IMG/VR virus record: IMGVR_UViG_3300020045_003042
Location: 1 to 33,334 of that record
Length of the DNA: 33,334 bases
Reading direction: 5' to 3' (one strand)
From: a virus
Lineage: Duplodnaviria; Caudoviricetes
The position numbers and the translations under genes are program-made. Under the pieces are notes generated by a model that saw nothing but the letters and a program-made list of their open reading frames with translations, ran no database searches and had not been told where the DNA came from. Of the stretch, positions 5,953-8,820 are shown piece by piece. Within the stretch, counting starts at the first letter, position 1; each line of letters begins with the position of its first letter.

Positions 5953-6159
5953 CTATGCCCCAGTCAAGGCTTCGTGTTCGAACTCAAGCGCCGCTATTCG
6001 GTCCATAAAGTCAGCCCTTGGCACCCCCTCACCTTTTTCATATCTCACAATCGTCCGTTCCGTTTTGCCAGCCCACACCGCAAGTTTGTAGCGTGACCAG
6101 CCCAGCCGCTTCCGTAGATCGGCTATCCTCTGCCCATGAATATTGTCGTTGTTTTCCAT
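5953..6159 (-). CDS. XRE-family HTH regulator (Cro-like)
   Basis: RIADLRKRLGWSRYKLAVWAGKTERTIVRYEKGEGVP is an HTH_3 pattern; ATG at 6159 chosen from promoter geometry. Confidence 0.85.
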   Translation of the reverse strand: MENNDNIHGQRIADLRKRLGWSRYKLAVWAGKTERTIVRYEKGEGVPRADFMDRIAALEFEHEALTGA

Positions 6160-6165
6160 GGGCTG

Positions 6166-6193
6166 ATAGTACCACACCGGGGTAAATTGTCAA
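6166..6193 (-). promoter_or_regulatory. leftward sigma70 promoter
   Basis: TTGACA-16 nt-TACTAT with extended TG. Confidence 0.65.
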
Positions 6194-6237
6194 GATAAAA
6201 TAATTTAAAAAAATCGGCAGAATGTGAAAAATAATTA

Positions 6238-6266
6238 TTGACAACTGGAAATTGATATGGCATATT
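6238..6266 (+). promoter_or_regulatory. rightward sigma70 promoter
   Basis: TTGACA-17 nt-CATATT with TG extension and an AT-rich UP-like element. Confidence 0.65.
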
Positions 6267-6673: not shown

Positions 6674-6869
6674 GATTATCTCCACGGAAGATCCAGAGTC
6701 GATCCTTGATTCGATTAAAGGCAGCACCTCGGATAGGCTCTTTAATATGCTGTTGATTTCAGAGCGGCGGCTTTTAGTTGCAATCGAGGACGTTAGGGCC
6801 ATCCAGGCTATCATCTGCGCTATTCAGTGCGAATTGGGGCGGCGTAGAATTGTTGACATAAAAGCTTAA
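6663..6869 (+). CDS. hypothetical protein
   Basis: 68 aa; GAGG RBS; overlaps the previous stop codon. Confidence 0.65.
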   Translation: MSDEIISTEDPESILDSIKGSTSDRLFNMLLISERRLLVAIEDVRAIQAIICAIQCELGRRRIVDIKA

Positions 6870-6880
6870 AGGGGGATCAA

Positions 6881-6949
6881 ATGGAATTTGCAGGATTTCC
6901 GAAAATGGCAAGATATAGCCGAGAAGCGATAGCCAGTGAGAATAGTTGA
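6881..6949 (+). pseudogene. orphan 5' fragment of the RNA ligase
   Basis: MEFAGFPKMARYSREAIASENS* matches FVPFPKMPRLSREAIVSE of 7454..8017 at 13 of 18 residues; has its own GGGGG RBS. Confidence 0.8.
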
Positions 6950-6974
6950 CAGACAAAGCAATTTGTGCCATAAT
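6946..6974 (+). promoter_or_regulatory. sigma70 promoter for HNH-ligase
   Basis: TTGACA-17 nt-CATAAT with TG extension. Confidence 0.7.
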
Positions 6975-7011
6975 GCCCGTGCGGATCAAATAACTCTAAC
7001 GGGGGGGTATT

Positions 7012-7479
7012 ATGGAGCTAACCAAGAATTGCAGGAAATGCGGAGCAGCTTTTACATTTGGGCCGGAGACAAAAGTAAAACATTTTTGTAGTAAACAATG
7101 CCGAGAGTCTCATTGGGTAGAGAATAACAGGGAAAAACACAACCGGAACGTAAGAGAATATCGTGCGAGGCGATACGCGAGTGAGGGGCAATGGCATAAT
7201 AACTCCCCCAAAGCTGTGGCCGCCAAAGCATGGATGAATGAAATAAAATCAAAGCCATGTCGGGACTGTGGCGGAATTTTTGAAGTTTGTTGTATGGATT
7301 TCGACCACAGGGAGGGAACAAAAAAAACTTATAATATAGGGAGCATGTTTGCACATCACTATAGCGCAGAACTTATTCAAATCGAATTAGATAAGTGCGA
7401 TCTTGTGTGTGCCAATTGTCATAGAATCCGAACCAGAGACAGGAGGATAGGAAGTGGAAAATATAAAGCATCTGTTTAA
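7012..7479 (+). CDS. HNH endonuclease
   Basis: PCRDCG...MDFDH...CDLVCANCHRIRT; N-terminal CRKC...FCSKQC Zn motif. Confidence 0.85.
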   Translation: MELTKNCRKCGAAFTFGPETKVKHFCSKQCRESHWVENNREKHNRNVREYRARRYASEGQWHNNSPKAVAAKAWMNEIKSKPCRDCGGIFEVCCMDFDHREGTKKTYNIGSMFAHHYSAELIQIELDKCDLVCANCHRIRTRDRRIGSGKYKASV

Positions 7480-8017
7480 CTTTGTGCCTTTTCCTAAAAT
7501 GCCAAGGCTGTCGCGAGAGGCGATAGTCTCAGAAAAAATTGACGGAACCTCTGGATGTATATTTATATCAGACGCTGACGAGAGCGGGAAGACGACCATG
7601 ATGGTCGGCTCCCGCAATCGGTGGATCTCTCCCGACGATGATAACCACGGATTCGCTCGTTGGGCCTACGATCATCAAGCCGAACTGATGGAACTCGGAC
7701 CCGGTAGGCACTTTGGGGAATGGTGGGGTAAGGGAATTCAGCGGGGGTATGGTTTGAAAGAGCGACGGTTTAGCCTTTTTAATGTAGCCCGATGGGGTGT
7801 GTCCCGCCCGAACTGCTGCCATGTTGTTCCGGTTTTATGGTCTGGTAATTTTGAGATGATTTGGATTGAAGACATCATGCACAACCTCGCAATCAACGGA
7901 AGCGTTGCGGCCCCAGGTTTTACCAACCCGGAGGGAATTGTGGTCTTCCACACAGCCGCCAATTTCGGGTTCAAAAAAACATTTGAAAAAGATGATTGCG
8001 GTAAAAGTTTTTCTTGA
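7454..8017 (+). CDS. Rnl2-type ATP-dependent RNA ligase (nucleotidyltransferase domain only)
   Basis: Motif I EKIDG, then GSRNR, FGEW, FSLF, EGIVV and FKK; AGGAGG RBS before a GTG start. Confidence 0.85.
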   Translation: MENIKHLFNFVPFPKMPRLSREAIVSEKIDGTSGCIFISDADESGKTTMMVGSRNRWISPDDDNHGFARWAYDHQAELMELGPGRHFGEWWGKGIQRGYGLKERRFSLFNVARWGVSRPNCCHVVPVLWSGNFEMIWIEDIMHNLAINGSVAAPGFTNPEGIVVFHTAANFGFKKTFEKDDCGKSFS

Positions 8018-8042
8018 CATTGGATCGAATCTAAATTAGTAT
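8014..8042 (+). promoter_or_regulatory. sigma70 promoter
   Basis: TTGACA-17 nt-TAGTAT; the -35 box overlaps the ligase stop codon. Confidence 0.65.
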
Positions 8043-8049
8043 GAACTTA

Positions 8050-8530
8050 ACGCTGAACGGAAAAGATCTTTCAAAAGTCAAATAGCAGGAGGCATTATGT
8101 GATTCTCAGCCAATGCCCATCTGGATGGTGGGCATTCACGGACAATCACAGAATTTCATTCCTTGAGTGGTTTGAAATTGATTTCCGACCGGCACAAAGG
8201 ATGGTGAGTTTTCCCGCTAATGTGTCACCCCGTATGGGGATTGTTAAAAATGCTGTACCGATCTTTTAAAATCCAGCCGAACCCAAACCCCAAAAGCCCC
8301 GGATTAGTCTCCGGGCAGTTAAAAGGTGAAAGTTCAGTTTTCGAAAGTAATACCCCCGAGGCTGGCGGGGGTTAACACAAAAATCAATTTTCCCGGAATA
8401 AGCCGGGGCCTCCCCTGAACCATATAGGACGCGCAATCCACGGTGGGGATGGGGAGGTAACAAACGCCATCCGCATTGAGGGGCCGACCGGATCTCCGGG
8501 CGGTAGCGACCTGGACGGCTGGTTCCAAAT
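8050..8530 (+). ncRNA. candidate structured RNA or leader
   Basis: About 480 nt with no + strand ORF of 60 aa or more; several GC hairpins; two GATCTTTYAAAA boxA-like motifs at 8065 and 8260. Confidence 0.4.
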
Positions 8531-8531
8531 G

Positions 8532-8608
8532 GGGGGCATAGCTCAACTGGTAGAGCCCCCGGCTCATAACCGGGCGGTTGACGGGTTCGAATCCCTCTGC
8601 CCCCACCA
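8532..8608 (+). tRNA. tRNA with CAT anticodon, non-initiator (Ile2/lysidine type or elongator Met)
   Basis: Acceptor GGGGGCA/TGCCCCC, D arm TAGCTCAACTGGTAGAGC, anticodon arm CCCGG-CTCATAA-CCGGG, GGTTCGAATCC T arm, encoded CCA. Confidence 0.93.
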
Positions 8609-8628
8609 CAACAAAAAAGGAGAACACA

Positions 8629-8820
8629 ATGGAAAAAACACTTGCCGACGTTTTCCGAGATACCGTAAACCAGCACATCGTTCTGGCTCAAGCCATAGCT
8701 AAGGCCAACCCCGAAGAGGCCATAACTTTCGACATGGCCAACTACTGTGAACGGGTTCAGTTTATGGACTCAACTTTTGCCCCGATTATTGAGCGTGGGG
8801 AAATGGGGGTTGAGGTATGA
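8629..8820 (+). CDS. hypothetical protein
   Basis: AAGGAG RBS; MEKTLADVF..., 63 aa. Confidence 0.7.
   Translation: MEKTLADVFRDTVNQHIVLAQAIAKANPEEAITFDMANYCERVQFMDSTFAPIIERGEMGVEV

Follow-up and report, generated by a model that had tools for sequence, protein, structure and literature searches.

The seg and mob genes of T-even phages encode homing endonucleases without the help of introns. Each of these intron-less genes lies beside a conserved gene and takes conserved motifs as targets; cleavage takes place at a distance of hundreds to thousands of bases, and flanking homology is a requirement for homing (PMC2988022). For I-TevI, segB and the Aeh1 mobE gene the same text describes a masking of the ribosome binding site (RBS) by a hairpin together with an internal promoter, and for T4 homing it describes one-sided illegitimate repair with extensive degradation. 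HNH genes can also sit at a crucial place in their host gene without splicing, as Aeh1 mobE in nrdA and T4 mobA in gene 60 do, in which case two chains reassemble (PMC2988022). In fungal mitochondria, mobile ORFs for LAGLIDADG or GIY-YIG enzymes bring in a foreign gene end that takes the place of the native end, and the latter is kept as a duplicate. Such C-terminal replacements are described for Allomyces atp6 and for Glomus atp6, atp9, cox2 and nad3 (PMC3630166), and N-terminal duplications are reported for atp9 with a GIY-YIG gene (PMC7487136) and for Tremella inserts (PMC7315562).

Here we describe a phage locus where an HNH gene stands between two copies of an RNA ligase start, the first a dead stub and the second part of an intact ligase gene. 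The HNH protein is probably a free-standing homing endonuclease that would cut motif I of other ligase alleles and bring its own ligase start with it. Like seg and mob, its gene is intron-less and neighbours a conserved gene whose conserved motif would be the target; unlike in the T-even cases, the candidate cut site is only 56 nt beyond the HNH stop codon and a duplicate gene start has been left behind. As with mobE and mobA, an HNH gene occupies a critical region without splicing, but a single intact chain appears to be rebuilt and the stub is seemingly dispensable. A predicted hairpin over the RBS and an internal promoter-like site recall I-TevI, segB and mobE. The closest precedents are T4 intronless homing and the fungal mitochondrial gene hybrids, the latter being closest in logic, although they differ in the replaced end, the nuclease families and the mitochondrial setting. 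By analogy, the element resembles the former combined with the gene-end replacement of the latter. In the literature that we searched, where subscription papers are poorly covered, we found no description of an HNH-ligase element or of a phage 5′ replacement.

The HNH-ligase locus in the window

The window, that is, the whole stretch of DNA analysed, is the entire record of an uncultured virus, 33,334 bases, linear and about 90% complete. It encodes a P22-like coat protein, lysozyme, DnaB, a replication initiator, a repressor-like HTH protein, a YqaJ exonuclease and NinB. The HNH-ligase site is located within a rightward gene run that follows divergent promoter-like sites (6166-6266); a small HTH gene beside these sites gives the region 5953-6266 a resemblance to a temperate phage switch. 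Another promoter-like site (8014-8042) overlaps the ligase stop, and a tRNA-Met (CAT) gene (8532-8608) is found downstream of the ligase. No close relative was present among 165 cultured phage records, every one being below 60%, and four flank proteins of the window had no match in any fetched locus.

Table 1. Positions of the features of the HNH-ligase locus in the window
Feature	Position	Strand	Basis or remark
RBS-like purine run of the stub	6870..6875	+	Sequence
22-codon stub of the RNA ligase 5′ end	6881..6949	+	Aligned part 6887-6942, ends in the motif-I Lys codon
Sigma70-type promoter-like site (TTGACA, 17 nt, CATAAT, with TG)	6946..6974	+	
Predicted 11-bp RNA stem (6968-6978 with 7005-7015)	6968..7015	+	0/200 shuffles as strongly paired
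HNH endonuclease gene (155 aa), with a four-Cys module at the N-terminus, long helices and the HNH domain at the C-terminus	7012..7479	+	
AGGAGG RBS of the ligase, within the HNH gene	7441..7446	+	Sequence
Presumed element-borne ligase 5′ end, through the AAA motif-I Lys codon (7535-7537)	7454..7537	+	Deduced from relatives
Intact 187-aa RNA-ligase-family nucleotidyltransferase domain, without C-terminal domain	7454..8017	+	

An earlier note on this DNA had reported an unlisted 22-codon ORF copying the ligase N-terminus and breaking at the motif-I Lys. Both points hold: the stub is identical to ligase residues 10-27 at 13 of 18 positions, while the runner-up among 18-residue segments, from ~66,500 positions across the six frames of the window, reaches 8, and the alignment stops after the AA at 6941-6942, which corresponds to the first two bases of the Lys codon. 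The duplicated codons had also been called heavily recoded. Recoding is present, but it is only moderate, as 34/54 nucleotides and 7 of the 13 codons for the same residue are identical; the nucleotide identity is slightly above the mean of 0.54-0.55 between the stub and other alleles. GC3 is 0.33 in the stub, 0.44 in the new start and 0.53 in the 3′ part, and composition in the window is uninformative on the origin of the stub. The stub is most similar to another stub (73%) and to a free allele (70%). The stub and the new start have two uncommon residues in common, Ala at –5 and Ser at –2; the latter is found in 17/40 HNH-linked alleles compared with 12/186 free ones. The window stub may be the remaining start of a previous round of invasion.

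The HNH gene product matches PHROG 3106 (E 2.5e-23) and PHROG 2255, and its model (pLDDT 90) matches viral folds of HNH proteins from E 1.3e-9. Matches to PDB folds are weak (E 0.08 or more), and a Pfam search of the protein returned no HNH family. Residues H99, N135 and H137 are invariant across 95 sequences. With these properties the gene can be assigned to the HNH endonuclease superfamily. It has its own start and stop and lies in no Rfam intron, and so is not inside an intron or intein. The downstream protein matches PF09414, as T4 Rnl2 and Naegleria RNA ligase do, and shares their nucleotidyltransferase fold (model matches to Naegleria RNA ligase, REL1 and T4 Rnl2, E 4e-6 to 2e-4), but is shorter than these two enzymes in lacking the C-terminal domain; PDB sequence searches gave no useful match for it. 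By this fold and the KxDG motif I we class it as a putative Rnl2-type ligase whose RNA-joining activity is presumed. The motif-I Lys is, we assume, the adenylated residue. The order of stub, HNH gene and full ligase, with the RBS and GTG start of the ligase inside the HNH gene, is as previously read.

The promoter-like site that follows the stub is as strong as had been claimed: it scores 11/12 with TG and is the best of 14 sites between 5500 and 9500 (shuffles 5.5 ± 2.3). The TTGACA was said to lie where the I-D codons would align; it misses that register by one base (offset 5, register 4). Offsets of the –35 box from the Lys position in six other loci are 0, 0, 7, 9, 11 and 18 bases, and descent of the box from the I-D codons is rejected as a rule. 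Given the missed register and the varied offsets, we treat the alignment as unexplained or due to chance. Related promoter-like sites precede the HNH gene in other stub-bearing loci, with a score of at least 10/12 in only 9/38.

The predicted stem pairs the –10 region with the RBS and start of the HNH gene, its 5′ arm being upstream of the expected internal start site. In the model, pairing is 0.86 on read-through RNA and 0.54 on RNA from the internal promoter, and on read-through transcripts the HNH start and some of its RBS would be hidden by the stem. Folding of the entire 106-nt region exceeds that of shuffles only modestly (z –1.56), and the hairpin beat shuffles in two of six loci tested (the window and L072). 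In several relatives the HNH start lies 6 bases past the –10 box, which suggests a leaderless RNA; among five such loci the hairpin beats shuffles in L072 only.

Linkage and stubs across the family

Scans for the HNH gene yielded 24 and 11 viral loci and the best 80 of 85 metagenome loci, from which 24 duplicates were dropped; none of 15 candidates on genome contigs carries an HNH gene of this clade. A ligase or its start lies downstream in 40/40 non-redundant loci scoring at least 150 bits, a set that includes the window and six other profile sequences, as well as L112 (5′ piece only), L118 (ending at the contig edge) and L145 (HNH interrupted). Among 52 weaker loci, 48 have enough downstream DNA, and a ligase is found in 4 of these, all partial or divergent members. 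In five loci the ligase belongs to another subfamily (type 2), whose N-terminus is longer. The candidate ligase start is inside the HNH gene in 32/35 type-1 alleles. A protein search found 757 HNH relatives at E 1e-30 or better, and ligase stubs stand at the start of 5 among the 120 listed. Starting from the ligase, an intact clade HNH was found upstream in 0/51 and 0/135 non-redundant loci (186 free alleles); the first set represents 68 loci minus duplicates and L013, and the ligase search of viral contigs took in 80 of 583 matches. HNH remnants were detected at L009, L092 and L156. The family thus shows tight HNH-ligase linkage at one site in many members rather than a single fossil.

Individual loci display further arrangements. 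In L112 (1918-2000) a short 5′ piece of the ligase, ending in a stop, is all that follows the HNH gene, the remaining ligase being missing, and in L145 (32-1260) the clade HNH is broken near its 3′ end by several small genes, with AAG in the ligase behind. The HNH protein of L133 (1414-2025) has a C-terminal extension of ~55 residues holding more Cys and His. A sister HNH lies directly 3′ of the ligase in L150 (129-1132) and L156 (830-1851), the latter in addition to the clade HNH remnant upstream. L009 and L071 are near-identical (98%), and L071 lacks 533 bases spanning the HNH remnant and most of the ligase. Ligase motif I is altered in L001 (Met for Lys) and L013 (Lys for Glu).

Stubs were read by eye in 38 loci with at least 120 bases upstream (14 of the 16 found are tabulated). 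They are kept in 16 loci and missing from 22, and none of the 16 extends past the motif-I Lys. Six reach the Lys codon (the window, L072, L073, L074, L109 and L146), those of L110 and L118 end within the Glu codon, and the others are shorter, the range being from 7 codons, as in the weak L116 stub (~7), to ~25. The last codon is AAG in L073, L074 and L146 and AAA in L072 and L109; in L109 the stub and the new start are 75% identical. Five stubs are fused in frame to the HNH gene (L111, L113, L122, L142, L146). Such a spread of ends would be expected if a broken end were trimmed and then joined with no help from homology. L142 (1-780) is nested, with an HNH 3′ end, a ligase stub fused to a second HNH and then a full ligase, and it shows re-invasion of an already invaded ligase.

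A different nuclease occupies the same layout at a single locus, L191 (728-1204). Here a ligase stub is joined in frame to a LAGLIDADG ORF (PF00961, 23.5 bits, cut-off 23.1). A full type-2 ligase with an AAA Lys codon comes next and overlaps the ORF; four free type-2 alleles have AAG. No relatives of this ORF were found on viral contigs. The upstream flank of L191 is 83% like that of the HNH-bearing L133.

Origin of the ligase start and the motif-I lysine codon

The earlier note proposed a search for empty-site alleles, and these were found: L265 for L073, L013 for L143 and L160, and the 186 free alleles at large. L265 is an HNH-free relative of L073 (3′ protein 92% identical) with unrelated upstream genes. 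At the nucleotide level, the stub of L073 matches L265 at 54/63 positions, the new start at 40/63 and blocks of the 3′ part at 47-55 per 60 (78-92%). Synonymous codons are identical in 14/19 cases for the stub and 96/132 for the 3′ part, compared with 3/17 for the new start. This comparison supports a resident origin for the stub and 3′ part of L073 and a foreign one for its new start. In L110 the stub is 94% like a free allele (L285), the 3′ part being cut off. GC3 in 37 linked alleles rises across the Lys codon from 0.35 to 0.53 (+0.18, P 1.6e-8), a step that is absent in 51 free alleles.

L143 and L160, which have no stub, have an upstream gene in common with the HNH-free L013 and are almost identical to it in their 5′ residues; because of this near identity their start is not clearly foreign. 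The pattern fits ordinary homing between relatives or a later loss of the HNH gene. Thus, the defining trait of the fungal hybrids, a foreign end carried in and the native one displaced, is seen in L073 and is not clear in L143 and L160. For the window no close empty allele was found, the best free 3′ part being 66% identical. Its stub need not have belonged to the present 3′ part, and relatives are what argues for a foreign start there. A degenerate pattern search for stub-like starts returned 8 continuous alleles, all without stub or HNH, and the exact continuous reading predicted for an empty site was not among them.

The codon of the motif-I Lys is AAA in 39/40 linked and 59/186 free alleles (9/51 and 50/135), a count that ignores relatedness; L146, L152 and L160 are included among the linked alleles here and L112, L118 and L128 are left out. 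When type-1 linked alleles are considered, the values are 35/35 versus 58/180 free. As controls, AAA is used in 22/33 alleles for a Lys that the same carried segment has 13 codons further upstream, and in 386/588 cases for lysines of the HNH genes. In simulations, which likewise ignore relatedness, 39 AAA codons were reached in 0/200,000 runs. The difference is maintained within GC3 classes (linked versus free: 11/11 and 23/36, 9/9 and 10/24, 12/12 and 25/121). Thr codons at –2 end with A or T in 16/16 linked and 57/166 free alleles, and codons past the Lys vary freely. The sole linked allele without AAA is L145 (AAG), where the HNH is interrupted; of the three remnant loci, L092 with its broken HNH has AAG, and two (L009 and L156) keep AAA. 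The fixed AAA is likely to be a self-protection or immunity mark against the element's own nuclease. About a third of free alleles have AAA; the upstream ORFs of 39 of them, the only ones searched, matched no Pfam homing-nuclease family and gave one ERCC4 and one weak PD-(D/E)XK match.

In a tree of 207 ligase 3′ parts, the 28 linked ones require 19 changes (shuffles: mean 26.7, minimum 24), which means that they are scattered with some clustering. A single clade for the linked 3′ parts is rejected under a simple model (p-AU 1.5e-10; 62 rows comprising the 28 linked parts, their 22 nearest free alleles and 12 random ones). Identities of HNH and ligase 3′ parts are uncorrelated (Mantel r –0.04, n 21), and identities of the 5′ segment do not significantly track those of the HNH (r 0.14, P 0.13, n 21). 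By these results the HNH gene appears to have a history independent of that of its host gene, and loss from free lineages may be a further contributor. HNH GC3 follows host GC3 (rho 0.90), suggesting that many HNH copies are long resident.

A proposed route of invasion and its alternatives

We propose that, in a resident or co-infecting phage, the nuclease would nick or cut the codons for T/S-E-K-I-D-G. The right end would then recombine with the donor ligase just past the Lys codon, so that the recipient keeps its 3′ part and gains the HNH gene and a new start. The left end would either find upstream homology, leaving no stub, or be joined without homology after trimming, leaving a stub and sometimes an in-frame HNH fusion. 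The carried start would owe its protection to the choice of codons for the Lys (AAA) and the two preceding residues, and the hairpin and the internal promoter would time HNH synthesis. After HNH decay, the allele could drift and become open to new invasion.

The earlier note had inferred that an element of promoter, HNH gene and new 5′ end invaded the ligase. Across the family this is favoured by linkage, stubs, the L073/L265 pair, non-clade 3′ parts and codon usage; for the window itself, it is weakened by the want of a close empty allele. Its claim that the ligase was restored without splicing is borne out at the sequence level. A self-splicing intron rejoining the stub to the ligase 3′ part, which an insertion with a nuclease ORF in a conserved motif might bring to mind, is barely credible: Rfam finds nothing but the tRNA in 6700-8700 and hence no group I or II ribozyme structure, the non-coding part is 62 nt, and the ligase that follows is whole and has an RBS of its own. 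Gene splitting of the Aeh1 nrdA type is rejected as well, since the downstream ORF holds the whole family alignment and many loci have no stub. The HNH and ligase genes could instead be a functional pair inherited together, with stubs as recombination debris, as their unbroken linkage and overlapping reading frames would allow. We regard this as highly improbable, because all 186 ligase-first loci do without an intact HNH, the identities of the two genes are uncorrelated, HNH remnants occur at three loci, and a LAGLIDADG gene fills the slot in L191.

A local tandem duplication of the ligase start with the HNH gene inserted between the copies, nothing being foreign, would explain the residues at –5 and –2 shared by the two window copies, the similarity of the copies in L109 and the L013 residues kept in L143 and L160. 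It is very unlikely in view of the foreign codons of the L073 start and of 16 stubs of varied lengths in scattered lineages. It is also unlikely that the HNH gene is mobile and ligase-linked with its site elsewhere or non-specific, AAA then arising from an operator, expression or A-run slippage. T4 free-standing enzymes do cut far from their genes (PMC2988022), AAA is carried by many free alleles, and the HNH site is a predicted one; nevertheless stub ends, the GC3 step and codon fixation all point to the Lys codon. Our preferred reading, homing at motif I with a carried ligase start, has a broader form that we put forward tentatively and would not yet bet on. There, the element would be a self-contained cassette independent of splicing, both of whose homology arms come from the target gene, so that it homes between unrelated phages without shared neighbours; immunity would be largely one Lys wobble base, and the LAGLIDADG gene would have converged on the same solution.

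If homing at motif I is correct, it would provide a third route, besides splicing and gene splitting, by which a phage homing endonuclease can occupy an active-site motif and leave the gene alive. Some phage RNA ligases would then be chimeras joined at the catalytic Lys. The data predict a target site and a protective base for the HNH enzyme, and one gene would display much of the cycle of invasion, decay and re-invasion.
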